Positions 36,275 to 58,488 are shown, counted from the stretch's first letter. The stretch: DNA of 64,000 nucleotides from Verrucomicrobiales bacterium (GCA_015075445.1 JABTUJ010000001.1:167059-231058); one strand, 5' to 3'. Notes: generated by a model not told the origin, from the letters alone. Made by a program: numbers and translations.

Positions 36275-36690
36275 GCGCGGCGATCCTGCAGGGGGTTCCC
36301 GCAACCACGCTGGACACGGATCTCTGGATTGACCTTCCCCCACGACAGTACATCCGCGTGCTCAACCTGTGTGTCGGCCTGGGGGCAATCATCCGTGCCA
36401 ACACCGTGGTGGAACTGACCGATGGAGCCCAGGTCAACTTCCTCTACGAGGTTCACGGGTTGCGAGGCTTCCAGGCCGAGTACCGGAATGCCCGACGCCT
36501 CCGTTGGCTGGGCATGTGGGTACGCGTCCTGCCCCTGGAACGGATCCTCGCGAGCAAGCGACACGTGGGGCGGCCCAAGGACCTGGCGCATCTGCCTCTG
36601 ATTGAGCAGACGATCCGCCTGCGGCGCCGGTTGGGCCGCCGGGACACGAAACGCCGGTCCTTTCCTCATGCGTCAACACTGGGGCGCGGT
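36145..36690 (+). CDS. nucleotidyltransferase-fold protein, locus 2 (3' end undefined)
   Basis: LARLVHALREAGLRFQVVGMSAAILQGVPATTLDTDLWIDLP...ILASKRHVGRPKDLAHLPLIEQ is an NTase signature paralogous to 15497-16318. The frame stays open to 37857 only as an antisense shadow of the large minus-strand gene, so the end coordinate is approximate. Confidence 0.45.
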
Positions 36691-42334: not shown

Positions 42335-42346
42335 TTCATGTCCCCC

Positions 42347-42369
42347 GTAGGCGCCGACGTCAGGAGGCG
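42347..42369. repeat. solitary REP-like element type A
   Basis: GTAGGCGCCGACGTCAGGAGGCG, immediately upstream of the LTD gene's start codon (minus strand). Confidence 0.8.
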
Positions 42370-42657
42370 TTGGGGAACAGGGCCAAGCCGAGGGACCCCG
42401 CAAACGAGACCCTCGGCTCGCCAACCTTTTCATGAAGGCGGAATAACCTGCTGACGCACTGCACATGGGCCCAGCCTAACCGGAAGGCGGCTCCGGTAAC
42501 AAACCCTCGTCGCAAAGAGGTTGGGGTCACGACGAGCTCTCCGTGAACCGCCCGGTGAGGGCACCCGGCCTGCAGCCTGTAGGCCGGGTCCCCCGACCCG
42601 GCGGGGAGGGTTCCTGGCCCTTGAGCCGATTCAAGCGACCCACGTCCCTTCCCCAAT

Positions 42658-43179: not shown

Positions 43180-45296
43180 TTGAGCCTGCCAGCGCTGATG
43201 ATCCTGCTGGGGTCGGGAGCGTGGGCTGCCATCGCCGCGCAGGGGTCCGAGCCGCCGCGGGTGTTGCTCATCCATTCGTTCGGCCGCGAGTTCGCGCCGT
43301 ACGAATCCTTCTCGGGGATCTTCCGGACGGAACTGGTCCGTGAGTCGCCGGTCCCGTTGGATATCTACGAGGTATCCCTCGACTCCGCTCGCTTCCGTGA
43401 GACCGCTCAGGAGGCGCCCTTCCTCGACTACCTGCTGGGCCAGTTTTCGCAGCGCGGCCTGGATCTGGTGGTGCCCATCGGCGGACCGGCCGCGCGCTTC
43501 GCCCAGCGCCATCGGCCGCGGCTGTTTCCGGACGTCCCGCTGCTCCTCGCCGCCACGGACCAGCGCCACCTGGAAGGGGAGGTGCCTGCCACCAACTGCG
43601 CGATGGCGACCGTGATGTATCAGCCGACGCGGATGCTGGACACGATCCTGGAGGTGTTGCCCCTGACGACCAACGTCGCCGTGGTCATCGGTTCCTCGCC
43701 CCTCGAGCAGTTCTGGCTCGCCGAATTGCGGGGCACCTTTGATTCCTACACCGACCGCGTCCGCTTCGAATGGTTGAATGGGTTGTCGTTTGCGCAAGTG
43801 CAACGACACTGCGCCACGCTGCCCCCATGCTCGGCGGTGTTCTTCGCGCTGCTGGCGGTCGACGCCGAGGGGGTGCCGCACATCGAGCAGCAGTCGCTCA
43901 CCCGGCTCCGCGAGGTGGCCAACGCGCCACTGTTTGGCCTGCAAGACACGCAGTTGGGCCGGGGCATCGTCGGCGGCCCGCTCATGAGCATCGAGGAACT
44001 CAGCCGCACGGCCGCTCGTGTGGCGGTTCGCCTTCTGCAGGGTGAGGACCCGGACACGATCCGCCTCCCCCCCCAGGAGCCGGGCCGACCGCAGTTCGAC
44101 TGGCGGGAGCTTCAACGGTGGGGGATTCCCGAGGCCCGGCTGCCGGCCGGCAGCCTCATCCGGTTCCGCCAGCCCACGGCTTGGGAACGCTACCGCTGGC
44201 GGATCATCGCGGTGATGTCGCTTTGCCTGCTCCAGGCGTTCCTCATCGTGCTGCTGGTCGTCCACCGCAGCCGGCGCCGCCGCGCCGAGCAATCGCTGCG
44301 GGAAAGCGAGGAGCGGCTGAGCCTGGCGGCGGCGGCGGGGACCGCATCTGATGGACCTGGACCCATTAACGGGTTTAAATACGGCGAACTGGCGCCGTAT
44401 GTTCGGCTTTCCGGTGCCGGAGCCCTGCCACGCGGCGGTGGTGGGAGCGCATCCACCGCACGATCGCGAGGGGGTCAGCCCGTGGCCTCTGCGACGGGCG
44501 GTGGCTGTGCGGACGGATTACGGAGAACATCGTGTTTCTCCTGACGGCACGTAGGCGCTGATTGCCGCCCGGCTGGCCACCGCTTGGCTGATACCGACAG
44601 GTGCCCGTACGTTGCGCGGCCGGACATCACTGAACGAAGGCGCATTAAGAGGAAGCGCGTGAATGGAGCTGGCGCCTGATAGCGCCCAGGGAGTGGAACG
44701 GCCCGGCTGGCCCGCGAACTGCACGCCGATTGATATCACCCAGCGGCTCGCCCGTCTGGCCATCGACATCGCAAGCTGTGAGCACGGCACGTCCGGGGTG
44801 GTGCTGGAGGAAACGGCGCGGATGGTTCGTGAAGGCCTGGTGCGGCCGAGCCGATGACGTCCACGCGCTTCCTACCGCCTGCATCCTTCCGGTGCTGAAG
44901 ACCATTCTCGGCGGCTGCCCTGAAAGCCGAGACGAACGGTTCGCGCCAGGAGGGACTCCCGTGGGCCCAGGCTGCTGAGGTCCCGGATTACATTGCGCAC
45001 GATGTTGCGTCCTGGCCCTTTCGCGTGGCCCAGGAAGCGCTGGTGCAACGCGACGCCGCTACGCGCGGGCGGCCGGGTCGAGGTGGATGCGACCGCTCGA
45101 CGGGGCCCGCAGTTGGCGGTTCGACAACGGCTGCGGCTTCAATCCCTCCCCTCGAACGCGATCGGCTCCAGCCTGGCTGGCCAGCATGCGCTGAACGCGC
45201 GCGTCGGTCTGCTCGGAGGCGAAGTGGAGATTGACCCGCCCTGGCAGCGGCACTACCGTGCTGGCCTGGGTGCCGCTGGCGCCCAAGACTCGATGA
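43180..45296 (+). pseudogene. sensor histidine kinase (periplasmic substrate-binding-like domain, TM, PAS, HisKA_3, HATPase); frame intact to about 44343, then multiply frameshifted
   Basis: Intact N-part in ORF 43180..44544 (…RWRIIAVMSLCLLQAFLIVLLVVHRSRRRRAEQSLRESEERLSLAAAAG). Later pieces lie in shifting frames: DLDPLTGLNTANWRRMFGFP (PAS), DITQRLARLAIDI (HisKA_3 H-box region), DVHAL.YRLHPS, FRVAQEALVQ..., GSGTTVLAWVPLA (ATPase G2 region). The stop TGA at 45294-45296 overlaps the RR ATG. Confidence 0.65.
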
Positions 45297-46909
45297 ACAC
45301 GCCCCGCCGCCCCCGCCTCCTCCTGGCGGATGACCACCGCTCGTGCTGAGGCCCTCAAGAGCCTGTCTGATCCGAGTCCGATGCCTGGAGGATCGGAGGA
45401 TGGCCGCGCCCTGTCGGCGGGCAAACGCCCGCGACCCGACGGATCGCAGCTGGACATCGCGATGCCCTCAGCTCAACGCATCGACGCGCCGGTCCAGCTC
45501 ATACGATACGCCTGGTGGAAAGTCAGTCTTCTGACCATGCATCCGATAATGCCCACGCGCGGCGCGCCCGAGGCCGGAGCCGCCGTCTGTCCTCGCCACC
45601 GGCTCCGCCGAGCCTGAGTTTGGATATCCTGGGGCATGGTGCGGGTCGAATCCGCTGGAGTTGCGGATCAGCGGCGTGCGCCGACCTACCGTTTGATAGG
45701 TGGGCGAAGTGACCGCCGGAAAACGACCGGTCGACGGCCAGCTGTTTGCAGGGCCCACCCGGTCCAGTGCAGTGAGTGGCCGCTTCGGTCCCGCGGCGCC
45801 ATCTGGCAAGGTGGGCCTATGACCCCGCCAGAGGGTGCCGTAGCACTGGAGGCTGGCCAAGAGCCACCAGCCATACATGGCCACCAGCCGCGCGGGTACT
45901 TTGCCTACGGAGTGCTGATCCCAGACCTGAGCCTGGCCGATGCCGAGGCTGCCGGTACGGGCGTCCGTTCCGGTGGTGGGATATTCTACTGCGCTGCCCA
46001 CCAGCCAGTGACTCCTGCTCTGGAACCGCCCTGCCAATGGATCTTGGTCAGTTCCTTGTAGCGCACCCGGCGAAAGCAGCCCCCGTGAAAGATCTGGATC
46101 TTCCCCGACCGCGCCCTGGAAACCCCGATAATGATACTGGGCCAGCCAGCGTCCCACGCGCCGACAGGTAACCTGAGGGTCTGGACCAACGAGGCCCACG
46201 GGCCGCACGGAAGCCAGATCGCCGTCCATGCGCGTCGGCGTCGCGGACAGCCGTTCCGGCTGGCCAGGGTGGGGCTTGCGCACGCGGCCAACCCGTGCGG
46301 GTCCGTGGCGCGTGCCCAAGCACACCGGCCCGCAGCCCAAGAGCAACGCGGGCGGCCAGCGTCCCTTTGAGTCGGCCGGGCCGCGTTACGTCAGTCCCAG
46401 AGCTCGCACAGATCACGCGGACAGCGACGTGCGATGCCAGTCAGGTGCGCTGCCACCAGCGCGCACCGCCGCCAGATCATCGCCCGAGAGCGTGCGGCCC
46501 TGGACGCGGATCGCTTCCACTGGCCCCGGGATCTACGCCATCATGGGTCGTGAGTTCAGCGGAAAATGTCCAAACTCCAGACTCGGCTTCCGCCGAGCTC
46601 ATCATGGCCATCCGCGCCGCCCTGGCGGGCAAGACCTACATCACCCCGGCGCTCGCCGGCGAGGTCTTCCAGGCTATGCTCCACCCGCCGCCACCCGGCG
46701 GCGACCCGGTCATGCGGCTGACCCCCCGCCAGCGCGAGATCCTCCAGTTGCTGGCCGAAGGCTGCTCCGCCAAGGAAGTCGCTGACAAGCTCGCCATCTC
46801 CCCCCGCACAGTCGAGTTCCACAAGTACCAGTTGATGGAATCGCTCGGCCTCCACCACAGCGCCGAGCTGATCCTCTTCGCCATCAAACACGGGATCGTC
46901 AGTTCCTGA
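45293..46909 (+). pseudogene. NarL/LuxR-family response regulator, frameshifted receiver domain, interrupted by a roughly 985-bp insertion
   Basis: MNTPRRPRLLLADDH (45293...), ...DGRAL...RPDGSQLDIAMP..., KVSLLTMHP and EAGAA in shifting frames. After the insertion there is an intact tail SAELIMAIRAALAGKTYITP...LTPRQREILQLLAEGCSAKEVADKLAISPRTVEFHKYQLMESLG (LuxR HTH) ending at 46909. Confidence 0.7.
45614..46598 (-). mobile_element. insertion carrying a single degraded DUF4338 (DruA-like) gene, flanked by a 14/15-nt direct repeat
   Basis: Minus-strand pieces: PVEAIRVQGRTLSGDDLAAVRA, RDLCELWDWRNAAGRLK and RWLAQYHYRGFQGAVGE (compare the HYLGY motif) match the DUF4338 N-to-C order but in several frames. 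Flanks are CGGCTCCGCCGAGC (45600-45613) and CGGCTTCCGCCGAGC (46584-46598). Confidence 0.55.
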
Positions 46910-46935
46910 TCGACTGGTAATTCCCGGGCCGCGAT

Positions 46936-46962
46936 CCCCGTAGAATTGCGAGGTCACAGCGG
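46936..46962 (+). promoter_or_regulatory. conserved 23-nt motif CGTAGAATTGCGAGGTCACAGCG (site 1), about 130 nt upstream of the decarboxylase start
   Basis: 21/23 identical to 55790-55812. Function unknown. Also resembles the REP type-B core. Confidence 0.3.
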
Positions 46963-47090
46963 ACTGCACCCCGGTGAGATTAGCTGATGTCAGCGAACCT
47001 CGCCGGGCGCGAATCTCCGCCGCAGCGGCAGCGCAGGGCGCAGCCAGGTCACGATCCGAGGCTCGGGACGCAGCGCGACCTAACTTCCCT

Positions 47091-49859
47091 ATGAAGACAA
47101 CCGACAAGTCAAACACCGGCGAACCCCGGACTCAGGATCTGGCCCCCATCTTCGCGGCGGCGGTCAATCGAACCGATCAATGGCGTGAGCTCCACGCCCT
47201 GGGTCGTGCGTGGGCCACGGCGCAGGGTGCTCCGGCAGAGGATCTGCGCGCCCAGGCCGCTGGACTGCTGCACACCATCAGCCGGCTCGAGCAGTGCTGG
47301 GCTTATCCGGGGCCGCGTCTGCTCGCCGCCCTTACCGAGGCGATGGCGCGGCGCGACGCCGCCACCTTCGCCCGCCTGGTGCAGAAGGTGTCCAGTGCGC
47401 TGCTTTCGGGTGACTACCGGCGGAGCGAGGGGGCCTGGGATCCTTCCACGGAGAGCGCCACCCGGCCGCTCGAAGCGGCCCTGCCGCCCGAGGCGGACAC
47501 GGGGGAGACGTCGAAGCCGAGCTTCGAGGTCCTGATCGTCACGCCGACCGACCCCGCCACGTGGGAACGCGGGCGCGCGGACATGAAGCGGATGCGGCGG
47601 CCGGAGGATCAGTTTCAGTACGAAGTCGTGCAGGCCGGGAGCTTCGAGGACGCCGCTCTGGCAGTGTTGGTCAATGACAACCTGCAGGCGGTCGTGATCG
47701 TGGACGGATTCCAGTATGGCTCCCGGCTCGAGATGCCGGATCTGCAAGCGTTCCTCGCCCGTTACCTGTCCATGGACCGTTCGTCGATCGAACCGGGTGC
47801 CCTGGCCACGGCGCTGGCCCAGGCGATCAAGCGATGCCGGCCGGAGCTCGACCTCTACCTGCTCTCGGATCGTACGGCCGAAGCCCTGGCGGGCAGTGAA
47901 GCCCTCGGCGGGGTGCGGCGGATGTTCCACCACGTCGAGGAGCCCATGGAAATCCACCTGTCCATCCTCGACGGCGTCAAGGACCGCTACGATACGCCGT
48001 ACTTTGACAACCTCAAGAAGTACGCGCAGCGCCCCATCGGCACCTTCCACGCCCTGCCCATCGCCCGCGGGAAGTCGGTGTTCCGCTCGAATTGGATTCG
48101 GGACTTCGGCCAGTTCTACGGCACGAACATCTTCTTCGCCGAGTCCTCGGCCACGACGGGCGGCCTGGACAGCCTGCTGGAGCCGACGGGCAACATCAAG
48201 AAGGCCCAGGACATGGCCGCGCGGGCGTTTGGGGCGAAGCGTGCCTACCTCGGCACCAACGGCACCTCGACTTCGAACAAGATCGTCGTCCAAGCCGTGT
48301 GCCAGCCGGGAGACATCGTGATCGTGGACCGCAACTGCCACAAGTCGCACCACTACGGCATGGTGCTCAGCGGCGCGCAGCCCTTGTACGTCGAGGCGTT
48401 CCCCCTGACTGAGTACTCGATGTATGGCGCCGTGCCCTTGCGCACGATCAAGAAGGCGCTGCTGGATTGCCAGGCCGAGGGCAAGCTCGACCGGGTCAAG
48501 GTCATCGACATGACCAACTGCACCTTCGACGGCCACATGTACAACCCCCGTCGGGTGATGGAGGAGTGTCTGGCGATCAAGCCCGACCTGATCTTCCTCT
48601 GGGATGAGGCATGGTTCGGCTTCGCGCGGTTCAATCCGTTTCACCGCCGCCGCACCGGGATGGGGGCCGCCGCCGCCTTGGCGGAGCGCTATCACGATCC
48701 CGCGTACCGGGAAGAGTACAAGGCCTGGGCGGCCAAAGTCGGCAAGCTCGACCCGAAGAACCCGAAACTGCTCGACCTGCACCTGCTGCCCGACCCGGAC
48801 AAGGTCCGGATCCGGGTCTACCAGACCAACTCGACCCACAAGTCCATGTCCGCGTTCCGGCAGGGCTCGATGATCCTGGTCTGGGACGAGGATTTTCACC
48901 AGGTCGAAGGTCCGTTCGAGGAGGCCTTCTTCACCCACACGTCCACGTCACCGAACCTGCAGCTCATCGCCTCACTGGACATCGCGCGCCGGCAGATGGA
49001 GTTGGAGGGCTATGGCCTTACCCTGCGCATGACCGACATCGCCTTCCGCATCCGGCGCGCGGTCAACACGCATCCGCTCGTCTCGAAGTACTTCCGGGTG
49101 GCCACACCGGCGGACATGATCCCCGCCCCGTTCCGCGCCTCCGGTTTGAAGGACTACGGTCCGCCCCACTCGACGTGGACCGACGTGGTCAAGGCCTGGG
49201 ACGAGGATGAGTTCGCGCTGGACCCCACCCGGCTGACCCTGATCTGTGGTGGTGCCGGGTTTGATGGCACCCAGTTCAAGGGTCTCCTGGCCGAGCGGTT
49301 CGACATCCAGATCAACAAGACCTCGCGCAACAGTGTGCTCGTGCAGACCAACATCAACAACACCCACAGCGACGCCGCGCTCCTCATCAAGGCGCTGGTC
49401 GACCTGTCGCGCGAGATTGAGCGCAAGCTGGCCCAGGGCGGGAAGGCGGTCCTCGACGCGCGGGTCAAGTCCCTGATGACCGATGTGCCCGACCTGCCGA
49501 ACTTCAGCCGGTTCCACGACGCCTTCCGCGACAACCCGAAAGCGGCCAGCAACGAAGGGCACATGCGCCCCGCGTTCTTCATGGCCTACGACGAGTCCAA
49601 CTGCGAGTTCCTCAAACTGGCCAGCAAGGAAGTGGATGAGCGGCTCAAGAAAGGGCCGGAGATGGTGTCGGCCAACTTCGTCATCCCCTATCCCCCTGGC
49701 TTCCCCATCATGGTGCCGGGCCAGGTGATCACGGCCGACACCATCAGCTTCATGCGCCAGCTCGATGTGAAGGAGATTCACGGCTACCACGCCGCCCAGG
49801 GGCTGAAGCTGATCAAGCCTGACAAGCTGCGCGGCACCGCCCGGAAATCCGCGAAATAG
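47091..49859 (+). CDS. Orn/Lys/Arg decarboxylase family protein (PLP fold-type I), long form with N-terminal extension
   Basis: ORF 46974..49859 trimmed to ATG 47091. FHALPIARGKSVF..., SATTGGLDSLLEPTG, GTNGTSTSNKIVVQAV, IVDRNCHKSHHY, and TNSTHKSMSAFRQGSMI (PLP-lysine motif S-x-H-K). A wing/receiver-like region FEVLIVTP...VVIVDG is preceded by about 150 extra residues. Confidence 0.85.
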   Translation: MKTTDKSNTGEPRTQDLAPIFAAAVNRTDQWRELHALGRAWATAQGAPAEDLRAQAAGLLHTISRLEQCWAYPGPRLLAALTEAMARRDAATFARLVQKVSSALLSGDYRRSEGAWDPSTESATRPLEAALPPEADTGETSKPSFEVLIVTPTDPATWERGRADMKRMRRPEDQFQYEVVQAGSFEDAALAVLVNDNLQAVVIVDGFQYGSRLEMPDLQAFLARYLSMDRSSIEPGALATALAQAIKRCRPELDLYLLSDRTAEALAGSEALGGVRRMFHHVEEPMEIHLSILDGVKDRYDTPYFDNLKKYAQRPIGTFHALPIARGKSVFRSNWIRDFGQFYGTNIFFAESSATTGGLDSLLEPTGNIKKAQDMAARAFGAKRAYLGTNGTSTSNKIVVQAVCQPGDIVIVDRNCHKSHHYGMVLSGAQPLYVEAFPLTEYSMYGAVPLRTIKKALLDCQAEGKLDRVKVIDMTNCTFDGHMYNPRRVMEECLAIKPDLIFLWDEAWFGFARFNPFHRRRTGMGAAAALAERYHDPAYREEYKAWAAKVGKLDPKNPKLLDLHLLPDPDKVRIRVYQTNSTHKSMSAFRQGSMILVWDEDFHQVEGPFEEAFFTHTSTSPNLQLIASLDIARRQMELEGYGLTLRMTDIAFRIRRAVNTHPLVSKYFRVATPADMIPAPFRASGLKDYGPPHSTWTDVVKAWDEDEFALDPTRLTLICGGAGFDGTQFKGLLAERFDIQINKTSRNSVLVQTNINNTHSDAALLIKALVDLSREIERKLAQGGKAVLDARVKSLMTDVPDLPNFSRFHDAFRDNPKAASNEGHMRPAFFMAYDESNCEFLKLASKEVDERLKKGPEMVSANFVIPYPPGFPIMVPGQVITADTISFMRQLDVKEIHGYHAAQGLKLIKPDKLRGTARKSAK

Positions 49860-49900
49860 GCCGCCCCGCATCTGCGCTCAACCCCAAGAGGCCCCCTGCC

Positions 49901-51601
49901 ATGCAAGCGTTCTTCGAATTCCTCCGCGCCAACCCCTACATCCTCCTGTTCTTCACGATCGGACTGGCGGTGTATGTGGGCAAGTTCAACGTCAAGGGCT
50001 ATGGCCTGGGCATGGTCGCCGCTGCCGTCGTCGTCGGTTGCGCGCTGGCCACGTGGGCCTCGACCTATGGGGTCAAGCTCCAGCTCGATGACTTCGCCAA
50101 GTCACTCTTCTACTACCTGTTCATGTATGGCGTGGGCCTCCGGGTGGGCCCCTCGTTCTTCAACAGCCTCAAGAAGGACGGACTCAAGTTCACGATCCTC
50201 GCCGTGGTGTGCAGCATCATGGGTCTGGTGCTCGTGGTGCTGGGGGCGAGGATGTTCGACCTGCCTCCCGGCGCGGCAGGTGGAATCCTGGCCGGTTCGC
50301 AAACCATGTCCGCCGCCATCGGCACGGCGGAGATGGCAGTCACCCAGGGGGCGTACAAGCTGCCCGATGGCACCTCGGCCGAATCGGTGTCGGCGATGAT
50401 CGCGCTCGGCTACGGGGTCACTTACATCTGGGGCACGGTGGGGATCATACTGATCTGCAAGTACCTTCCGCGCTGGTGGGGCCTGGACGCCAAGCAGGCC
50501 GCCAAGGAGTACGAACAGACCCACGGCGTCGCCAACGTGGATGATTCCGGCCTCACCGGCTATCGCCCCGCGGGATTGCGCGCCTACAAGCTGGAGAACC
50601 CGGCCACCGCCGGTCAGACCATTGCCCAGTTCCGCCAGAAACACCCGCAGTACCGCATCGTCAACGTCGTCCGGAACGGCGAGTCCATCGGCGCCAGCCC
50701 GGACGCGGCCCTGCAGGCCGGCGACGTCATCGCGCTCGGCGGCCGGCTCGAGGACCTCACTTCAAACATGGGGCTGATCGGTCCCGAGGTGGCCGATAGC
50801 AAGGCCCTGAACATCCCCCTGGACCAAGCCGAGGTCTTGGTCACGAACAAGGACCTCGAAGGCAAGGCCCTCAAGGAGTTCCGCCACGAGGATTTCGCCG
50901 GCCAATTGCAGGTGGTCCGCCTCGAACGCGGCGGGGTGCCGATCCCGCTCGGGGCCGACACCCAACTCCAACGCTTCGACGTGCTGTTTGTCGCGGGCCT
51001 CAAGAGCGCCGTCAACAAGCTGGCCGCACTCGTGGGCAAGGTCGCCCGCCCCAGCACGGCTACCGACCTGTTGACCCTCTCCGTGGGCATGGTCGTCGGC
51101 CTGCTCGTCGGGCAGATCAACGTGCCGGTCGGCAGCTTCTCCGTGGGGCTGGGCAACGCTGGCGGGCTGTTGCTTTCGGGGATCTTCGTGTCGTCCATTG
51201 TCTCGCGGCTGCGTTTCTTTGGCAGCACACCCAACGCGGCGCGCAACATCCTCGAGGACCTGGGTCTGGTGACGTTCATCGCCATCGTCGGCATCAACGC
51301 CGGCTCGACCCTGCTGGCGCAACTCACGGGTAAGATCGCCCTGTTCATCTTCCTGGCCGGCTTCATCGCCAGCACCATTCCGCCCATCCTGACCTGGGCC
51401 ATCGGCTATCACTTCATGAAGATCAACCCGGCCGTGCTCATGGGCGGGGTCGCTGGCGCCCGCTCGCATTCGGGCCCGGCGCGGGAGGCTGCCAAGGAGA
51501 TCGACAGCAGCGTGCCGTGGGTTGGTTTCCCCGTGGGCTACGCCGTCTCGGGGGTGTTGCTGACGGTGTTTGGCTACTTCGCGATGGTGTTCTCCAAGTA
51601 G
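49901..51601 (+). CDS. AspT/YidE/YbjL-family transporter (aspartate:alanine-exchanger family) with two central TrkA-C/RCK_C-like domains, paralog 1
   Basis: MQAFFEFLRANPYILLFFTIGLAVYVGKFNVKGYGLG is the typical N-terminus of the family. Duplicated membrane halves flank a cytoplasmic region (…YRIVNVVRNGESI...AGDVIALGG...; ...VVRLERGGVPIP...RFDVLFVAG). Confidence 0.8.
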   Translation: MQAFFEFLRANPYILLFFTIGLAVYVGKFNVKGYGLGMVAAAVVVGCALATWASTYGVKLQLDDFAKSLFYYLFMYGVGLRVGPSFFNSLKKDGLKFTILAVVCSIMGLVLVVLGARMFDLPPGAAGGILAGSQTMSAAIGTAEMAVTQGAYKLPDGTSAESVSAMIALGYGVTYIWGTVGIILICKYLPRWWGLDAKQAAKEYEQTHGVANVDDSGLTGYRPAGLRAYKLENPATAGQTIAQFRQKHPQYRIVNVVRNGESIGASPDAALQAGDVIALGGRLEDLTSNMGLIGPEVADSKALNIPLDQAEVLVTNKDLEGKALKEFRHEDFAGQLQVVRLERGGVPIPLGADTQLQRFDVLFVAGLKSAVNKLAALVGKVARPSTATDLLTLSVGMVVGLLVGQINVPVGSFSVGLGNAGGLLLSGIFVSSIVSRLRFFGSTPNAARNILEDLGLVTFIAIVGINAGSTLLAQLTGKIALFIFLAGFIASTIPPILTWAIGYHFMKINPAVLMGGVAGARSHSGPAREAAKEIDSSVPWVGFPVGYAVSGVLLTVFGYFAMVFSK

Positions 51602-51612
51602 GCGGGGCGGCC

Positions 51613-53304
51613 ATGGACTGGCTGGAACAACTCTTCGCCAAGTACCCGGAGCTGGCGGTCTACCTGTCCCTCGGGATGGGTTTCTGGGTCGGCGGCCGGA
51701 CCTTCCGCGGCTTCAGCCTCGGGGGGGTGACGGGCTCGCTGCTGGCAGGCATCGTCCTCGGGTATCTCTTCGAAGTACCGGTCTCGGGGGCGGCCAAGTC
51801 GGTCGTGTTCCTGCTCTTCATGTTCGGGATCGGCTACAGCGTCGGGCCGCAGTTCTTCAAGGCGATGCGGGGGGACGGCTGGCGCTTCGCGGTGCTCGCC
51901 GTCTTCATGCCCGTGGTGGGATTGCTGGTGACCTACGTCGTCGCCCGCATCCTGCAGCTTGATGCCGGCTTTGCCGGTGGGTTGCTTTCGGGGGCGCTGA
52001 CCCAGTCGCCGGCGATGGGCACGGCGAGTGACGCGATCCAATCGCTCGCGCTGCCCGACGACGTGAAGCAGCGACTGGTCGGTCACGTGGCGGTGGGGGA
52101 CGCGCTGTGCTACGTGTTCGGCGCGTTTGGCGTCATCTATTGCTGCACGGTGCTGGGTCCGAAACTGCTCGGCATCGACCTCCCCAGCGAGGCCGCGAAG
52201 CTCGAGGCGGCGTACGGCATCAAACGCACCAAGCAGGGCGTGGTCTCGGCGTGGCGGGCCTTCGAACTCCGCGCCTACCGCCTGCCTCCCGCCTCCCGTG
52301 CGGCGGGCCGCACCGTGGCGGAAGCCGAGCAACTGGTGCCCAACGCCCGCGTGTTCGTTCAGCGCCTCCGCCGCGACCGGGAACTGATTGAAGCGGCGCC
52401 GCAGACCGTCCTGCAGGCGGGCGATGTCGTGGCCGTCATCGGCCGGCGGGAGGTGCTGGTGGAGATCCTCGGCGCCCAGCTCCAGGAACTCGAAGACCGC
52501 GAGTTGCTCGATCTGCCGGCGGCTTCCTTCGACGTGTTCGTGAGCGCCAAAGATCTGGTGGGCCGCCCCCTCGAGGACCTGGCGCGCGACGACACCCTGC
52601 GGAGTGTGTTCCTGCGGCGGCTCACGCGGGGTGGCCTCGACATCCCGATTGGCACCCGGACGGTCCTGGAGCGGGGTGACGTCGTGACTCTCGTTGGGCC
52701 CGAGGCTGCCGTCGAGCGGGTGGCCCCGAGGTTCGGCCGCACGGTTCGTCCCACCGAAGTGACCGACTTTGTGGCGGTGGGCTTGGCGATCTGCGCCGGT
52801 GCCCTGGTGGGGGCCGCGCTCGCGTTCGAGGTCGGTTCCGTGAAGCTCGCGCTGGGCACCACCGTGGGAACCCTCCTGGCGGGCATCGGAACCGGCTACC
52901 TTCGCTCCGTGCGGCCGCTCTTCGGGCGGGTGCCTGACGGCGCGGTCGCCTTCATGCAGACCTACGGGTTGGCGGCGTTTGTGGCGATGGTGGGCCTGGG
53001 GGCCGGACCCCATTTCCTTCCCGCGGTCAAAGAGGCCGGGTTGGGCCTGCTGGTGGGGGGCGTGTTCGTGACCCTGATCCCGCCGATTGCCGGGCTGTAC
53101 TTCGGTCGCTACGTGCTGCGGGTGAATCCGCTCCTGCTCCTGGGCGGCCTCTCCGGGGCGCAGACGTTCACGGCGGGGCTCGCCGCGGTCCAGGAGAAAT
53201 CCGGCAGCCCGATCGCCGTGCTGGGTTACTCCGGTGCCGTGCCGGTCGCTCAAGTCCTCCTGACCACGTGGGGGACGGTCATCGTCCTGTTGCTGTCGCG
53301 GTGA
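51613..53304 (+). CDS. AspT/YidE/YbjL-family transporter, paralog 2
   Basis: ORF 51517..53304 trimmed to ATG 51613. MDWLEQLFAKYPELAVYLSLGMGFWVGGRTFRGFSLGG. Same two-half plus two RCK_C-like architecture (…VFVQRLRRDRELI...AGDVVAVIG; ...FLRRLTRGGLDIP...RGDVVTLVG). Starts 11 nt after paralog 1. Confidence 0.8.
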   Translation: MDWLEQLFAKYPELAVYLSLGMGFWVGGRTFRGFSLGGVTGSLLAGIVLGYLFEVPVSGAAKSVVFLLFMFGIGYSVGPQFFKAMRGDGWRFAVLAVFMPVVGLLVTYVVARILQLDAGFAGGLLSGALTQSPAMGTASDAIQSLALPDDVKQRLVGHVAVGDALCYVFGAFGVIYCCTVLGPKLLGIDLPSEAAKLEAAYGIKRTKQGVVSAWRAFELRAYRLPPASRAAGRTVAEAEQLVPNARVFVQRLRRDRELIEAAPQTVLQAGDVVAVIGRREVLVEILGAQLQELEDRELLDLPAASFDVFVSAKDLVGRPLEDLARDDTLRSVFLRRLTRGGLDIPIGTRTVLERGDVVTLVGPEAAVERVAPRFGRTVRPTEVTDFVAVGLAICAGALVGAALAFEVGSVKLALGTTVGTLLAGIGTGYLRSVRPLFGRVPDGAVAFMQTYGLAAFVAMVGLGAGPHFLPAVKEAGLGLLVGGVFVTLIPPIAGLYFGRYVLRVNPLLLLGGLSGAQTFTAGLAAVQEKSGSPIAVLGYSGAVPVAQVLLTTWGTVIVLLLSR

Positions 53305-53403
53305 CGACCCATGCCAGGCGCCCGTCGCCAAACCCCCGGTGGACCCGCCACTCTCCCTTCCTGAACCGAAGCCAATCACACAGAGAAACACACTCGAGCC
53401 ACT

Positions 53404-54888
53404 ATGAAAACGCACTCGTCCCTGAGATCTCTCGCGCTGGCGGGCGCCGTTCTGGCTGCCGGTCTGCCCGGGCACACACAGGCTCCGGACACGGCCGAGT
53501 TGGAGCAGCTCAAGTCGACGGTCAAGGCGATGGAGCAAACTCTCCAGGAAATGAACCGGAAGATCGCCGAGCTGGAGAAGCAGACCCAGCCGGCTCCCCC
53601 CCCGGTCCAGCCGGTGGCACCGGCGCCAGCCCCTCCGACCATCCCGCCCGCCACGCACCCGGGTGCCGACCTCCCCACCCGGGCGCAGCCGCCGGCCGAT
53701 GAGCTGGCCGACGGCACCACCCAGATTCCCTATCGGGATAGCATGAAGGAGGAAGACCTGGCTGCGCCGCGTCCCGGCAATGCTCCGCTCGACCCGACCT
53801 ATCAGGGGTTCATGCAACTGTTCGGCACCAAGACCTGGGTCAAGCTCGGGGGCTATGCCAAGTTGGATGCCATCGCGGACTCCACCCGGGTGGGCAACCC
53901 GAACATGTTCATCACTTCGAAGATCCCGGTCGAAGGGGAGCCGGACTACGGCAAGGGCGAGCACTTCGCGTTGCATGCCAAGCAGACCCGCTTGAACCTG
54001 GAACTCCGTTCGCCGACTCCGCTGGGCGCCTTGAAGATCTACTACGAGAACGACTTCTTCGGGAACAACACCGAGCCCTCGATGGACTACCGGCTCCGCC
54101 ACTTCTACGGCCAGCTCGCCAACCTCACCGTGGGACAGACCTGGAGCACCTTCTATGACCCGGATGTGAACCCCGACACGCTCGACTTCGAAGGGCCCGG
54201 TGTTCTGCCCGTCCTCCGCCAACCTGAAGTCCGCTACACCATCCCGATCCTGAAGAACGCCATGTACACGGCGCTCGCGATCGAGCAGCCCAAAAGCGAT
54301 CTGGGCAACCTCCCCGCGGGTGCCGATGGACGGAACACGATGCCCGACTTCGCCGGCCATTGGCGCTGGGAAGGCAAGCCGGGTCATGTGCAGGTGGGCG
54401 GCCTGCTCCGCAGCCTCTCCTTCGACCACAGCACCGGACCCGACGATTCTGCCATGGGGTGGGGCGTGAACCTCTCCGGCGGGCTGAAGACCTTCGGGGA
54501 GGACCAGATCATCACCAGCTTCAGTTACGGCGACGGCATCGGCCGCTACATCCAGGATCTGCCCAGCGGTAGCGCCGGCGTCGTGGATGCCGCGGGAGAC
54601 CTGCACCTGCTCACCGCCTGGGGGGCCATGGTCGGCTACCGCCGCCAGTGGAGCGAGAAGTGGCGCTCCACGCTCAGCTACAGCTACGTGACCTCGGATG
54701 GTCGGCCGGAACAGGGCGACTTCGCCTATGATCAGACCCAGTACGCCCAGGCCAACCTCGTCTGGTCTCCCACGAAGAACTTCTATCTGGGGCTCGAGTA
54801 CCTCTACGGCTTCAAGGAAGCGCAGAACGGGAGCAGCGGAGACGATCATCGCGTCCAGCTCAGCTTCCAGTACAAGCTCATCCGGTAA
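53404..54888 (+). CDS. outer-membrane porin with N-terminal coiled coil (DcaP-like)
   Basis: Signal MKTHSSLRSLALAGAVLAAGLPGHTQA. Coiled coil ELEQLKSTVKAMEQTLQEMNRKIAELEKQ, then a Pro-rich linker, then about 380 aa with alternating beta-strand-like pattern rich in Y/F/W/G and a terminal LSFQYKLIR. Confidence 0.55.
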   Translation: MKTHSSLRSLALAGAVLAAGLPGHTQAPDTAELEQLKSTVKAMEQTLQEMNRKIAELEKQTQPAPPPVQPVAPAPAPPTIPPATHPGADLPTRAQPPADELADGTTQIPYRDSMKEEDLAAPRPGNAPLDPTYQGFMQLFGTKTWVKLGGYAKLDAIADSTRVGNPNMFITSKIPVEGEPDYGKGEHFALHAKQTRLNLELRSPTPLGALKIYYENDFFGNNTEPSMDYRLRHFYGQLANLTVGQTWSTFYDPDVNPDTLDFEGPGVLPVLRQPEVRYTIPILKNAMYTALAIEQPKSDLGNLPAGADGRNTMPDFAGHWRWEGKPGHVQVGGLLRSLSFDHSTGPDDSAMGWGVNLSGGLKTFGEDQIITSFSYGDGIGRYIQDLPSGSAGVVDAAGDLHLLTAWGAMVGYRRQWSEKWRSTLSYSYVTSDGRPEQGDFAYDQTQYAQANLVWSPTKNFYLGLEYLYGFKEAQNGSSGDDHRVQLSFQYKLIR

Positions 54889-54894
54889 CCCCCG

Positions 54895-54940
54895 CCCCTC
54901 CGCCATCCGGCCGCCGCGCCCCGGCGGAGGGGTGTCGTCA
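54895..54940 (+). terminator. possible intrinsic terminator after the porin gene
   Basis: CCCCTCCGCC (54895-54904) pairs with GGCGGAGGGG (54923-54932), followed by TGTCGTC. The loop is long (18 nt) and the U-tract is weak. Confidence 0.25.
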
Positions 54941-54962
54941 CCGCGCCCGCAATCTGCGCTCC

Positions 54963-55715
54963 ATGCTTCAGGGTCAGTTCACTCTGCCGATCCAGATCGA
55001 CCTGGTCGCCACCTTCCTGTTCGCCCTGACGGGTGCGTTGGCGGCGTTGCGGCGCGGCTACGATGTGGTGGGGTTGTTCGCGTTGGCCTTCGTCACGGGC
55101 GTGGGAGGCGGGCTGATTCGCGACGGCCTCTTCATCCAGCAGGGCCCGCCGGCCGTGACCTCGGATTCGCGGTACATCTTGGTCGTCCTGCTGGCGGGCT
55201 GCGTGGCCTTCCTGTTCCGGGAGCGGATCATCGGTCTGAACCGGGTGATTGCCTGGCTCGACACGCTGGGCGTGCGGACCCACCTCTTCCGGGACCAGCT
55301 CAACCGGTTCAACAAGGGGATCGCCTGGCTGGATGCGCTGGGCCTGGGCGCTTACGCGGTCGTGGGCGTGCAGAAGTCGTTGAACGCAGGCCTGAGCATC
55401 GCCGCGGCCGTGCTGGTGGGGGTGATCAACGCATCGGGGGGCGGGTTGTTGCGTGACGTCCTGGTGCGGGACGAACCGCTGCTCTTCAAGCCGGGCCAGT
55501 TCTATGTGCTGGCGGGGTTCGCCGGCTGCCTGCTGTTCGCGGTGCTCGCGGTGCACTTCCAACTCGAGGCCACCCCGGCCGCGTTCATCGGCATTCTCGT
55601 GACGTTCGTGCTCCGCGTGCTGGCCATCCAGTTCAACTGGGTGTCACCCCCCCTGTGGCGCGGACCCGCCTCAGCCCCGCCCGCGAACGAGTGTCCGCCC
55701 CCGCCGGCGGCCTGA
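54963..55715 (+). CDS. TRIC-type (UPF0126/YadS-like) cation channel family membrane protein
   Basis: Two internal repeats, each with the glycine motif: FVTGVGGGLIRDGLF and VINASGGGLLRDVLV. About 7 hydrophobic segments. Confidence 0.7.
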   Translation: MLQGQFTLPIQIDLVATFLFALTGALAALRRGYDVVGLFALAFVTGVGGGLIRDGLFIQQGPPAVTSDSRYILVVLLAGCVAFLFRERIIGLNRVIAWLDTLGVRTHLFRDQLNRFNKGIAWLDALGLGAYAVVGVQKSLNAGLSIAAAVLVGVINASGGGLLRDVLVRDEPLLFKPGQFYVLAGFAGCLLFAVLAVHFQLEATPAAFIGILVTFVLRVLAIQFNWVSPPLWRGPASAPPANECPPPPAA

Positions 55716-55786
55716 TGCGGGCGGGCACCCCCCCGGGGCCGGCTCGGGTGGGGGCGCCCGGATGCCCGGGGTTTTGCGGGGCGCCT

Positions 55787-55814
55787 CCTCGTAGTTTTGC
55801 GAGGTCACAGCGCG
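55787..55814 (+). promoter_or_regulatory. conserved 23-nt motif CGTAGTTTTGCGAGGTCACAGCG (site 2), about 155 nt upstream of the next gene
   Basis: See 46936-46962. The only two occurrences I found in the window. Confidence 0.3.
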
Positions 55815-55966
55815 AGATCCGACGTCCAGAATCCGACCTGTGATTCACGTCAACCCGACTGCTCTCCCGGCCGTCGGCAGGGTTGCCGGCGCTGGGGACG
55901 CCCTGTGCCTCGTCGTGCGGCACGCGGTCTTGCTTCGCTGAAACGCAGCTAACTCTGACTGAAACC

Positions 55967-56311
55967 ATGAAGGCTTCCTTGAATCCGAAATCACGCCTTT
56001 TGACCCTGGCCCTGTTGGTCACCGGCCTGGCCTGCTCGGCCTGGGCCGAGTCCAAGAACAAACTGGATGCCCGCGTCCGGGATCTGACCGACAACACCCC
56101 CGTCCTGGTCTATAGCGACACTCGCGGCGTCTTCGGCGGTGCGGCGCTCGAGACCGGCGGGCTCTTCCCGGATGGCGGTGACAACAAGAATTACTACGGC
56201 GAGGAATTCACCATGAGCGAGATCCTGGTCGGTGGCAAAGTCGAGCCCACCGAGGCGGCCACTCTGCTCGCCCAGAAGATCGAGCACTACGCCAAGCCGC
56301 AGGCCAAGTAG
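55967..56311 (+). CDS. small secreted protein, SYLF/Ysc84-like C-terminal fragment-like
   Basis: ORF 55883..56311 trimmed to ATG 55967. Signal SRLLTLALLVTGLACSAWA. ...VLVYSDTRGVFGGAALETGGLFPDGGDNKNYYG...ILVGGKVEP resembles the C-terminal half of SYLF domains. Much shorter than a full domain. Confidence 0.35.
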   Translation: MKASLNPKSRLLTLALLVTGLACSAWAESKNKLDARVRDLTDNTPVLVYSDTRGVFGGAALETGGLFPDGGDNKNYYGEEFTMSEILVGGKVEPTEAATLLAQKIEHYAKPQAK

Positions 56312-56336
56312 TCCCCGGCTTTGTCTTCGCCCGGCC

Positions 56337-56768
56337 ATGAGCCAAGGAAGCGTCAAGTGCGTGCTGCTGGCCGACCGACATCATGGCCTGTGCGAAGGGG
56401 TGCGCAGCCTGCTCGAGACGGTGTTCGAGGCGGTGGTGATGGTGGCCGACGAGAAATCCCTGCTCGAGAGCGCCCGCTGCCTCCAGCCGACCCTGGCGGT
56501 GGTCGACCTCTCGATCACGCGCCACGATGGCCTGCGGTGGCTCCGGCGGTTGCGCGAGCGGTGTCCCGCGGTGCGGATTCTGGTGCTCAGCGTCCACGAC
56601 GAGTCCAGCGTCTGCCAGGCCGTGATGGAGGCGGGGGCGGATGGATTCATCCTCAAACGCGCCCTCGCCACCGAACTCTTGCCCGCCGTGGACACGGTCC
56701 TCGCGGGAAGCCACTATGTCCCGGCCTGCGTCGCTCAAGCTGGCGCGCCCCCCCGGCCCGCCGCATGA
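56337..56768 (+). CDS. stand-alone response-regulator receiver domain protein
   Basis: ORF 56232..56768 trimmed to ATG 56337. VLLADRHHG (DR in place of the usual DD pocket), AVVDLSI (phospho-acceptor Asp), ILVLSVH, GADGFILK (conserved Lys). No output domain. Confidence 0.7.
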   Translation: MSQGSVKCVLLADRHHGLCEGVRSLLETVFEAVVMVADEKSLLESARCLQPTLAVVDLSITRHDGLRWLRRLRERCPAVRILVLSVHDESSVCQAVMEAGADGFILKRALATELLPAVDTVLAGSHYVPACVAQAGAPPRPAA

Positions 56769-56790
56769 GCCCGCCGTAATCACTTCGCGC

Positions 56791-57303
56791 ATGAAACCAC
56801 ATTCTCGATCCCTCCTTACTCCCGCCGGCTGGCGAAGCCGCTGGCGGGCGGTGTTCCTGCTGCCGCTGCTGCTGTGGCCCGCCTCCGCCCAGGCGTCGAT
56901 GTTCAAAGGCGAAGCTCTGGACAAGCTGGCCGACGTCCTGACTTGGGTCGTGCTGATCGTGGCGCCGGTGGTGGGCATCGCCGTCTTTCTCCTCGTTCAC
57001 ATCCTCCCGGAGAAGATCGCGGAGAAGAAGCAACATCCCCAGGCCAAGGCCATCCAATGCCTCTGTCTCCTGTCGCTGGTCTTTGGCGGTATCCTCTGGC
57101 CCCTGGCCTGGCTATGGGCCTATACCCGGCCCGTCCTGCACAAGCTCGCCTACGGCACGGACCAGGTAGCGCATGGCCACGACGAGGCCAAGCCGCCCAA
57201 GGCAACGGCCGAAGCGGAGGAGCTGCAACAGCTTCGCCAGCGCCTCGCGGAACTGGAAGCCAAACGGGCGGGAACGCCCGCCCCTGAAAGAGGAAAGGCC
57301 TGA
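56791..57303 (+). CDS. DUF3302-like inner-membrane protein (YiaW-like)
   Basis: ORF 56641..57303 trimmed to ATG 56791. LTWVVLIVAPVVGIAVFLLVHILPEKIAEKKQHPQAKAIQCLCLLSLVFGGILWPLAWLWAY matches the DUF3302 pattern. Positioned directly upstream of a HlyD-family gene, as in yiaW-yiaV. Confidence 0.6.
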   Translation: MKPHSRSLLTPAGWRSRWRAVFLLPLLLWPASAQASMFKGEALDKLADVLTWVVLIVAPVVGIAVFLLVHILPEKIAEKKQHPQAKAIQCLCLLSLVFGGILWPLAWLWAYTRPVLHKLAYGTDQVAHGHDEAKPPKATAEAEELQQLRQRLAELEAKRAGTPAPERGKA

Positions 57304-57306
57304 CCC

Positions 57307-58488
57307 ATGGAAATCCTGCTGCTCGGCATTTACGCCTTCTTCGTCTGGCTGATCTTCTTCAAGTTCCGCTGGCTGCCCTGGAACTTCATCAGCCAGGTCA
57401 TCGTCATCGTCCTCCCCATCCTCGGGCTGACGGTGCTGATTCTCCTGCTCAACATCGTCGCGCCCTCCTCCCATGATGTGCGCGTGGTGAATTACGTGGT
57501 GCCCATCAACCCGCCGGTCCGCGGGCTGGTCACCGAGGTCCCCATCGAGCCCAACCGCCCCATCAAGAAGGGCGACGTTCTCTTCAAGGTGGACTCCACC
57601 CCCTTCGAGATCGCCGTCCGCAACTACGAGGCCCAGATCACCCAGCTCCGTGCCCAACTGGTCAGCGCGGAAGCCAGCGCGCGCAACCGCCAGGAACAGT
57701 TGAACAGCGCCACGGGCCAGCGCGAAGCCATCGCCTCGCGCCTGCGCCTGGCGCAGCTCCGGCTGCGGCAATTCGAGGAACTCGCCAACACCGGGGCGGG
57801 CAACCGCTTCGATTTCGAGCAGGCCCAGGCCGACGTCGACAACCTCACCGCCCAACTGGCCTCGACCGTCGCTGCAGAAGCCCAAGCCCGCGAGACCCTC
57901 GCGGCCAAAACGCCCGAGGGCGAACCGGACGAGGTGGCCAACGTGAAGGCCCAGCTCGCCCGCGCCGAGGCGGAGCTGGCCAACGCCCGCTGGGAACTCA
58001 GCCAGACCACCTACCACGCCCCCGCGGACGGGACCGTCGTCGCCCTCACCCTGCGCCCGGGCGCGATGGCGGTCCCCCTGCCCATGACTCCCGCCATGAA
58101 CTTCATCGAGGACGAGCAGTGGATCCTCGCCATCTACCACCAGAACGAAGTCCGCAAGATCAAGCCCGGGCAGGAGGCCGAGGTGGCTTTCAAGATGTAC
58201 CCGGGCCGGGTGGTGAAGTGCAAGGTGGACTCGATCATGTGGGCCACCGCCCAGGGCCAATTGCCCATCGGCAGCGTCAACCCCAGCGGCGGCGTCGCGC
58301 CCATCCCTGCCCACAGCCTCGCCGTGCGCCTGCTCCCGGACGGGAAAGACAAGGACCTCTTCCTGGCCGCGGGAGCGCACGGGGCGGGAGCGGTCTTCAC
58401 CGACAGCGGCCATGCGATCCAGATCCTGCGCAAGGTCCTGGTGCGCGTGGGCGCCAAACTGGACTGGCTGATCCTCAAACTGCACTGA
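57307..58488 (+). CDS. HlyD-family membrane fusion protein (YiaV-like)
   Basis: N-terminal TM helices, lipoyl-like GLVTEVPIEPNRPIKKGDVLFKVD, long coiled coil, ...YHAPADGTVVALTLRPG. Confidence 0.8.
   Translation: MEILLLGIYAFFVWLIFFKFRWLPWNFISQVIVIVLPILGLTVLILLLNIVAPSSHDVRVVNYVVPINPPVRGLVTEVPIEPNRPIKKGDVLFKVDSTPFEIAVRNYEAQITQLRAQLVSAEASARNRQEQLNSATGQREAIASRLRLAQLRLRQFEELANTGAGNRFDFEQAQADVDNLTAQLASTVAAEAQARETLAAKTPEGEPDEVANVKAQLARAEAELANARWELSQTTYHAPADGTVVALTLRPGAMAVPLPMTPAMNFIEDEQWILAIYHQNEVRKIKPGQEAEVAFKMYPGRVVKCKVDSIMWATAQGQLPIGSVNPSGGVAPIPAHSLAVRLLPDGKDKDLFLAAGAHGAGAVFTDSGHAIQILRKVLVRVGAKLDWLILKLH

Follow-up and report, generated by a model that had tools for sequence, protein, structure and literature searches.

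The 64,000-nt stretch of Verrucomicrobiales DNA analyzed here (GCA_015075445.1 JABTUJ010000001.1:167059-231058; hereafter the window) carries a block of five genes encoding, in order, a long-form pyridoxal 5′-phosphate (PLP) decarboxylase, two AspT-family exchangers (T1 and T2), a DcaP-family outer-membrane porin and a TRIC-type channel. We consider it rather likely that this block specifies a two-membrane module of precursor/product exchange and decarboxylation for an acidic amino acid, most probably for the pair L-glutamate/γ-aminobutyric acid (GABA). This reading draws on the family memberships, active-site conservation and reciprocal gene linkage established here, together with the published glutamate specificity of Rv2531c, a homologous decarboxylase of Mycobacterium tuberculosis.

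The five plus-strand open reading frames (ORFs; Table 1) are separated by gaps of 41, 11, 99 and 74 nt, as an earlier note made from the sequence alone had described, and the same calls and lengths were found in two independent public assemblies, each of which encodes the second protein (T1) with 100% identity. GC content at the third codon position is 0.85-0.90 in all five genes, indicating that they are coding, and is 67% over the whole stretch. Scanning of positions 44500-57500 found no terminator-like site within the four intergenic gaps, the matches sitting inside genes, and no sigma-70-type promoter; a Rfam search of the entire window returned no riboswitch and no other RNA family. The short, terminator-free gaps are compatible with a single transcript, without proving it, and we infer that the five genes are co-transcribed.

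Conservation of the gene neighbourhood was evaluated by scanning one genome per species for the decarboxylase. This found 586 relatives, and the counts given here rest on the best 80 loci (60-88% identity), which were compared with the window (81 loci in total) by tblastn and all-against-all ORF clustering. These 80 loci derive from Verrucomicrobiota, Xanthomonadales, Binatia, Methylomirabilota, Acidobacteriota, Myxococcota, Nitrospirota, Thermodesulfobacteriota and several proteobacterial classes. Loci with full flanks were regarded as complete (n = 64), and at least 2 kb of downstream sequence was needed for a locus to enter the downstream test (n = 75). An AspT-family gene was found on the decarboxylase's strand in 69 of the 75 loci, and immediately downstream of the decarboxylase (<400 nt) in 54 of them; aspartate 4-decarboxylase occupies the immediately downstream place in 11 loci. 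The adjacency of the decarboxylase and an AspT-family gene is conserved in at least ten phylum-level groups. When metagenome contigs were searched reciprocally with T1 as the query, the decarboxylase or its C-terminus lay directly upstream in 75 of 80 loci, and the remaining five have <135 nt of upstream sequence, which is too short to tell. Further, pairwise identity of the decarboxylase is correlated with that of T1 (r = 0.75). The clade of the window enzyme, with 60-90% mutual identity, is made up of diderm bacteria and occurs nearly always in an operon with AspT-family exchangers, and the same core is carried by cultured strains of Lysobacter, Stenotrophomonas, Pseudoxanthomonas and Arenimonas. 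By these synteny counts the arrangement goes far beyond chance. Gene-order conservation in related genomes, which the earlier note had named as a check, was found in both directions. The core of its proposal also holds, namely that an OKR-fold decarboxylase is functionally tied to AspT-family exchangers and an outer-membrane conduit, given this adjacency, its reciprocity and a porin inside the cluster in 49 of the 64 complete loci (77%).

Pfam recovered all the families that had been named in advance, that is, OKR_DC_1 and OKR_DC_1_C, Asp-Al_Ex with TrkA_C, DcaP, and Gly_transporter/TRIC. In the 922-aa decarboxylase, OKR_DC_1 (1e-69) is accompanied by OKR_DC_1_C, and the S-T-H-K motif occupies residues 581-584, which, with the alignment that follows, confirms the original description of a fold-type-I decarboxylase with an S-x-H-K motif and an extra N-terminal region. 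The best solved relative is Rv2531c (9N0N/9N0O/9N0P), which is 45% identical across 872 positions, and a single alignment joins residues 17-909 of the window enzyme to residues 16-897 of Rv2531c (PDB 9n0n, E 3e-228). Rv2531c consists of a four-helix N-terminal domain, a receiver-like wing, a PLP catalytic domain and a domain at the C-terminus (borders from PMC12329521). The additional N-terminal region of the window enzyme aligns with the four-helix bundle, and since the alignment is full-length, this region represents an Rv2531c-type four-helix-bundle domain followed by the receiver-like wing.

In the presence of Mg2+, purified Rv2531c forms GABA from L-glutamate in a strongly cooperative reaction (K0.5 509 mM, Hill coefficient 4); it is inactive on Lys, Orn and Arg in vitro; deletion of its gene in M. 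tuberculosis abolishes labelled GABA, and residues H405, K406, R576, T606, R718 and N731 have been implicated (PMC13506015, August 2026). The window equivalents of H405/K406, K570, R576, T606, R718 and N731 are H417/K418, K584, R590, T619, K730 and N742, so that all seven active-site positions are kept except for one conservative Arg-to-Lys change (R718 to K730). All seven window residues are invariant across 79 homologues. The set compared includes the Arg of Rv2531c proposed to bind the γ-carboxylate of the substrate, and the position of R590 is occupied by Ser in the lysine decarboxylases LdcA and LdcI. Five NCBIfam models for Lys, Arg and Orn decarboxylases gave 184, 172, 168, 141 and 136 bits on the window enzyme, against cut-offs of 968, 1056, 1167, 794 and 1310. 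Because these models fail, Rv2531c acts on glutamate and the residues are conserved, "Orn/Lys/Arg-type" is to be taken as the name of a fold and not of a substrate, and the window enzyme is a probable L-glutamate decarboxylase, its substrate being deduced from sequence comparison. The initial assignment of the enzyme to the Orn/Lys/Arg type, if meant as specificity, had to be abandoned: of the substrates reported, Rv2531c decarboxylates L-glutamate only, and the residues of the glutamate site are retained with the single Arg-to-Lys replacement. Specificity for Lys, Arg or Orn was rejected on three grounds, the curated scores far below cut-off, the Arg in place of the active-site Ser, and the inactivity of Rv2531c on these substrates.

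Each of the two transporters contains two Asp-Al_Ex and two TrkA_C domains, that is, two membrane halves parted by two TrkA_C (RCK_C) domains, and both align over their full length with the T. halophilus AspT structures 8XW5 and 9OQY. This is the architecture of the AAEx, or AspT/YidE/YbjL, family (TC 2.A.81; PF06826), in line with the two adjacent paralogous AspT-family transporters, each with two RCK_C-like inserts, recognized at the outset. T1 and T2 are distant paralogues (~32% identity), and three AspT-family types were distinguished among the loci: T1 (window gene 2), T2 (window gene 3) and T3, which is linked to the aspartate 4-decarboxylase AsdA. On the Asp:Ala antiporter model TIGR03802, which has a cut-off of 546.95 bits, the window T1 scored 411 bits and the window T2 549.9 bits; across loci the scores were ~400-411 for T1, 535-554 for T2 and 640-672 for T3. 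T1 shows 62-98% identity across phyla. At the positions of the T. halophilus AspT substrate site (T130, S132, Y167, T496 and S498), T2 has T-Q-S, Y and T plus a Thr-for-Ser replacement. In T1 the corresponding residues are T-M-S, Y, Ser (replacing Thr) and S, flanked in hairpin 2 by Arg and His; the hairpin-2 motif of T1 reads G-A-R-S-H-S-G-P versus G-A-D-T-L-S-A-A in AspT. T1 and AsdA share none of the 81 loci. A role of T1 as a plain Asp:Ala antiporter was therefore rejected, based on the TIGR03802 score below cut-off and the total exclusion from AsdA loci. Exchange by T1 and T2, its electrogenicity and the substrates proposed here are predictions; the AAEx family includes a proven electrogenic Asp:Ala antiporter as well as reported glutamate and succinate carriers, and the public record of the T1-identical protein carries only the name "transporter".

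T1 is the only type in 13 loci, both T1 and T2 are found in 12, and 6 have T2 as the sole AspT-type gene. As T2 is optional, either type can stand alone, and AspT is a homodimer with an elevator-type mechanism, an obligate T1/T2 heterodimer, which the earlier note had entertained as a possibility, is unlikely and was set aside. AsdA (TIGR03801, 799 bits) and a bona fide AspT adjoin the long-form decarboxylase in 23 of the 80 relatives, mostly Acidobacteriota and Methylomirabilota, and T3 adjoins AsdA in 19 of these 23; AsdA, AspT and the long-form decarboxylase there form a combined acidic-amino-acid decarboxylation locus. AspT genes split into two or three adjacent fragments were seen in eight loci from metagenome-assembled genomes (L003, L013, L036, L039, L040, L041, L042 and L063), and these are probably assembly frameshift errors rather than pseudogenes.

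The porin scored 72.7 bits on DcaP (PF19577, cut-off 27; 4e-20), matches the DcaP structure 6EUS (E 4e-15) and shows, read by eye from its sequence, an unbroken 3-4-3-4 hydrophobic heptad at residues ~30-60, in keeping with the outer-membrane porin with an N-terminal trimerisation-type coiled coil that the earlier note described. DcaP is a trimeric 16-strand porin whose trimer is stabilised by an N-terminal coiled coil, and it is strongly anion-selective and passes dicarboxylates. The porin is DcaP-like in 24 of the 81 loci and of the OprD family in 34 others (PF03573, 1e-34 to 7e-36), and since these two families are unrelated, an outer-membrane channel has been recruited at least two times. 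In four loci from three lineages a glutaminase gene (PF04960, 1e-105) is embedded in the cluster on the same strand, with the order porin-glutaminase-decarboxylase-AspT in L043 and L049. The TRIC family assignment of the fifth gene stood, with two PF03458 stretches (1e-37, 128 bits) and matches to the prokaryotic TRIC structures 5WUC (E 5e-21), 5H36 (E 2e-17) and 5H35. Its suggested place as a regular part of the module did not: TRIC lies within the cluster in only 6 of the 64 complete loci, yet from several unrelated phyla, and is a minority accessory. The roles given below for the porin and TRIC are predictions.

In the proposed module, external glutamate would pass the outer membrane by way of the DcaP-type porin, predicted to be trimeric and anion-selective, and in some relatives the co-clustered glutaminase would make glutamate from glutamine. 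T1, as an elevator-type carrier, would swap incoming glutamate (1−) for outgoing GABA (net 0). In the cytoplasm the long-form PLP decarboxylase would turn glutamate into GABA and CO2 with the consumption of one proton, and GABA would exit through the same exchanger. T2 is perhaps a second exchanger with another substrate pair or affinity, or for another pH range or set of conditions, and TRIC might offer an optional K+ counter-ion path. Because glutamate(1−)/GABA(0) exchange would be coupled to decarboxylation, each turnover would carry one negative charge inward and remove one cytoplasmic proton, and the net outcome would be a membrane potential and a pH gradient, that is, proton-motive force and acid resistance, with the same balance of charge and protons as in AspD-AspT and GadB-GadC. 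We give about even chances to the further proposal that T1 is the founding member of a so far unrecognised glutamate:GABA antiporter subfamily within AAEx, tied obligately in operons to the long-form decarboxylase. With the recruited anion porin, this would constitute a widespread energy-conserving or acid-resistance system of environmental diderms (Verrucomicrobiota, Xanthomonadales, Binatia, Methylomirabilota, Acidobacteriota and others) that evolved independently of GadBC and is often merged with AsdA-AspT into an "acidic amino acid decarboxylation island".

Several observations weigh against the glutamate/GABA module. Glutamate activity is known for Rv2531c only, and because Rv2531c is only 45% identical, stands in another gene context and has a very high K0.5 for glutamate (509 mM), the physiological substrate or mode of the window enzyme could differ. 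In eleven complete loci the decarboxylase is accompanied by AsdA and the bona fide AspT (T3) alone, with neither T1 nor T2, which a simple one-enzyme-one-exchanger model does not explain. The rarity of TRIC (6/64) and a promoter assignment that relies solely on the repeated motif described below count on the same side. To our knowledge, exchange of glutamate for GABA is also without precedent among AAEx members.

The same genes could serve a different acidic substrate, with L-aspartate α-decarboxylated to β-alanine, or cysteate/cysteine sulfinate to taurine/hypotaurine, and with T1 and T2 exchanging that pair. We regard this as unlikely, although it gains from the AsdA and bona fide Asp:Ala antiporter that adjoin the decarboxylase in the 23 relatives, from the T2 score that attains the Asp:Ala antiporter cut-off, and from the 0.5 M K0.5 of Rv2531c for glutamate. 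In addition, the substrates found reported as assayed for Rv2531c with Mg2+ are Lys, Orn, Arg and Glu (PMC13506015). The Rv2531c knockout, however, altered GABA alone among the amino-acid products, the co-clustered amidase is a glutaminase and not an asparaginase, and T1 stays below the AspT cut-off and never occurs with AsdA; moreover, tblastn found no AsdA gene anywhere in the 64-kb window.

A small chance likewise attaches to an "overflow valve" for cytoplasmic glutamate that acts in osmotic, K+-glutamate or pH homeostasis. The cooperative, low-affinity decarboxylase would destroy excess endogenous glutamate, its product or another anion (succinate, for example) would be exported by the AspT-type carriers and K+ released by TRIC, and external uptake would not be the point. 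The high K0.5 and the Hill coefficient of 4 of Rv2531c would suit such a valve, as would the succinate and glutamate exporters among AAEx members and the recurrent ion- and osmo-homeostasis neighbours (MscS in 11 loci, an Ion_trans_2 K+ channel in 11, CaCA in 13 and TRIC in about 7). An external supply is nevertheless suggested by the substrate-type porin, present in 77% of complete loci, and by the glutaminase beside the porin; no gabT/gabD-type GABA-shunt genes were found among the annotated recurrent neighbour clusters, and the sole structurally and functionally defined AAEx member is an obligate exchanger.

Far less probable is a classical decarboxylase for Lys, Arg or Orn, with unusual AspT-family carriers exchanging the diamine that it produces. 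The Pfam domain name (Orn/Lys/Arg decarboxylase) and the database label of homologues, "arginine decarboxylase", speak for it, against curated scores of about 135-184 bits where LdcI/LdcC, AdiA and SpeC/SpeF require 794-1310, the inactivity of Rv2531c on all three amino acids, an invariant Arg where LdcI and LdcA have Ser, and a porin family that is anion-selective. That the genes are neighbours without functional coupling is hardly credible, as the linkage is reciprocal and extends across many phyla in variable surroundings.

Table 1. Positions of the module genes, flanking features and selected genes of related loci (window coordinates unless a locus is given)
Feature	Position	Strand	Details
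Sensor histidine kinase remnant	43180..45272	+	tblastn versus the intact 944-aa kinase of L001
NarL/GerE-type response regulator, split gene	45315..46909	+	receiver 45315-45581 (frame 3), GerE 46583-46903 (frame 2)
23-nt motif CGTAGAATTGCGAGGTCACAGCG, putative promoter/operator	46939..46961	+	130 nt upstream of decarboxylase start
Long-form (four-domain) PLP decarboxylase, Rv2531c type, probable L-glutamate decarboxylase	47091..49859	+	922 aa; OKR_DC_1 and OKR_DC_1_C, 9n0n/9n0o match
T1, AspT/AAEx-family exchanger, distinct subfamily; proposed glutamate:GABA antiporter	49901..51601	+	566 aa; Asp-Al_Ex x2 and TrkA_C x2
T2, second AspT/AAEx-family exchanger, optional accessory	51613..53304	+	563 aa; Asp-Al_Ex x2 and TrkA_C x2
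DcaP-family outer-membrane porin	53404..54888	+	494 aa; signal peptide, N-terminal coiled coil, Pro-rich linker; PF19577, 6EUS
TRIC-type (UPF0126/Gly_transporter) channel	54963..55715	+	250 aa; PF03458 x2
Second 23-nt motif copy CGTAGTTTTGCGAGGTCACAGCG	55790..55812	+	after TRIC, upstream of Ysc84-like and receiver-only genes
Receiver-only response regulator	56337..56768	+	Response_reg 1e-16; 143 aa in independent assembly
DUF3302 protein	56641-57303		3′ of module
HlyD-type adaptor	57307-58488		3′ of module
OEP/TolC-like outer-membrane factor	58490-59923		3′ of module
Glutaminase	L043 8702-9724; L049 8649-9665; L040 17410-18489; L069 18997-20121	same as decarboxylase	between porin and decarboxylase/transporter genes
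MscS	L062 14748-16517		example neighbour
Ion_trans_2	L036 7871-8557		example neighbour
PPK2	L064 5144-5971		example neighbour
SulP	L061 1658-3361		example neighbour
DUF2950	L010 7800-8771		example neighbour
AsdA/AspT-bearing loci	L040 14619-16286; L043 14350-16056; L046 14455-16065; L064 13010-14659; L068 12924-14651; L075 12905-14554		17 more loci

Upstream of the decarboxylase, the earlier note had placed a NarL-type two-component operon, of which only a degraded remnant was found in the window. The closest relative (L001) has an intact GAF-PAS kinase (944 aa) and a NarL-type regulator (214 aa). In the window, residues 75-431 of the L001 kinase are retained in frame 1, with the periplasmic and transmembrane part intact, residues 755-937 are scattered over three frames, and residues 432-754 (GAF/PAS) are missing. 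The regulator gene is divided by ~1 kb of unique sequence (45582-46582, 68% GC). An intact operon was thus rejected for the window, based on the kinase core in three frames and the split regulator. Since the truncated 101-aa GerE ORF was also called in an independent assembly, the truncation is not an error of one assembly. The 1-kb insert has no terminal repeats and no second copy in the window or in 160 other loci. Comparison with Rfam (E<=1) and with plasmids yielded nothing, and neither of its two largest ORFs matched Pfam, so that these searches gave no sign of a mobile element or an RNA.

Exactly two copies of the motif CGTAGWWTTGCGAGGTCACAGCG are present in the 64-kb window, versus 0 expected in shuffles. 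The 23-nt motif can be written CGTAG(AA/TT)TTGCGAGGTCACAGCG, contains a TAnnTTTG-like element, and its two copies bracket the five-gene block. It is a putative promoter or operator of the operon. In close Verrucomicrobiota relatives, a similar motif precedes the receiver-only gene, which there directly precedes the decarboxylase; the receiver-only regulator of the window is 66% identical to orf165 of L001, which lies directly upstream of the decarboxylase in that locus. The bracketing motif pair and the position of the motif in the relatives suggest a local rearrangement with duplication of the promoter/operator.

A small Ysc84/SYLF-domain gene (55967-56311; 114 aa in the independent call) lies between TRIC and the receiver-only regulator. 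The recurrent neighbours also include a DUF3302-HlyD-OEP triad; in the window a second HlyD-type adaptor follows the OEP/TolC-like gene at 60018-61229, and an HlyD-OEP pair was found near the decarboxylase in ~20 of 81 loci, Xanthomonadales among them. Ion- and osmo-homeostasis genes (MscS, K+ channel, CaCA, SulP, PPK2, DUF2950 and DUF3300) surround the decarboxylase in 9-18 loci each. Further upstream, on the minus strand, 36673-39516 and 40208-42466 encode two large paralogues (947 and 752 aa) that contain lamin-tail (LTD) and CBM_4_9 domains.

The long-form decarboxylase family has >1,000 members, most of them wrongly labelled arginine or lysine decarboxylases, and a function was assigned only in 2026, in a Mycobacterium with a solitary gene. 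Its near-obligate link to a dedicated exchanger subfamily, usually with a porin and sometimes with a glutaminase, points to another role in most environmental bacteria, in which the enzyme would take part in an exchange with the exterior, in a proton-consuming, charge-separating cycle. If the glutamate/GABA module is correct, T1 would be the first glutamate:GABA antiporter of the AAEx family, hundreds of "putative transport protein" annotations would be explained, and glutamate-dependent energy or acid protection would have a third, independent solution.

With Rv2531c, called a "cloaked" L-glutamate decarboxylase of the long form, a subfamily of IPR000310 / OKR_DC_1 (PDB 9N0N/9N0O/9N0P; PMC12329521, PMC13506015), the window enzyme shares the four-domain architecture, 45% identity and the active-site residues with one Arg-to-Lys change. 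The genomic contexts differ, because the mycobacterial gene stands beside toxin-antitoxin genes without a transporter or porin neighbour, and Rv2531c has been assigned to the cytoplasmic GABA shunt; the paper assigning its function mentions no antiporter, AspT or gene neighbourhood (PMC13506015). The AspD/AsdA-AspT system of T. halophilus (TIGR03801/TIGR03802) resembles the window in the family and fold of the transporter and in pairing a decarboxylase with an electrogenic precursor/product exchanger. It differs in that the window has no AsdA and that T1 reaches 411 bits against a cut-off of 547 and has another hairpin 2; further, AsdA is an aminotransferase-like β-decarboxylase, whereas the window enzyme is an OKR-fold α-decarboxylase.

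The GadB-GadC system of enterobacteria, with the YbaS glutaminase, takes up glutamate, releases GABA and consumes one proton, which is the same chemistry as proposed here, and a glutaminase is co-clustered in some relatives of the window locus as well. GadB (a group II decarboxylase) and GadC (an APC-family antiporter) are both unrelated to the window proteins, and the system is not known to include a porin gene.

The chlamydial aaxABC operon likewise joins a porin, a decarboxylase and an inner-membrane antiporter, which are co-transcribed in Chlamydia (PMC2720952). The likeness is confined to this three-part operon layout, the Aax proteins being set apart by their published description: the substrate pair is basic (Arg/agmatine), and AaxB is pyruvoyl-dependent, in contrast to the PLP-dependent, OKR-fold window enzyme. 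The AaxC antiporter and the AaxA porin are not described in that source as AAEx or DcaP proteins, and belong to other families. Compared with the A. baumannii DcaP (6EUS), the window porin has the same PF19577 barrel and N-terminal coiled coil, from a family that is anion-selective and serves di-/tricarboxylate uptake; the similarity is distant (E 4e-15), the window porin has a long Pro-rich linker, and its context is decarboxylation instead of dicarboxylic-acid catabolism. Linkage of AspT-family carriers with OKR or glutamate decarboxylases was not described in the literature found, most subscription journals lying outside the coverage. The suggestion that the combination had not been described before thus holds to the extent that no paper was found, whereas the two-membrane operon layout has its precedent in aaxABC. 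Decarboxylase/antiporter cycles are classical, and what is new here is the combination and its spread over many phyla: an OKR-fold, probable glutamate decarboxylase is joined with its own AAEx subfamily (T1) and usually also with a porin of the anion type.

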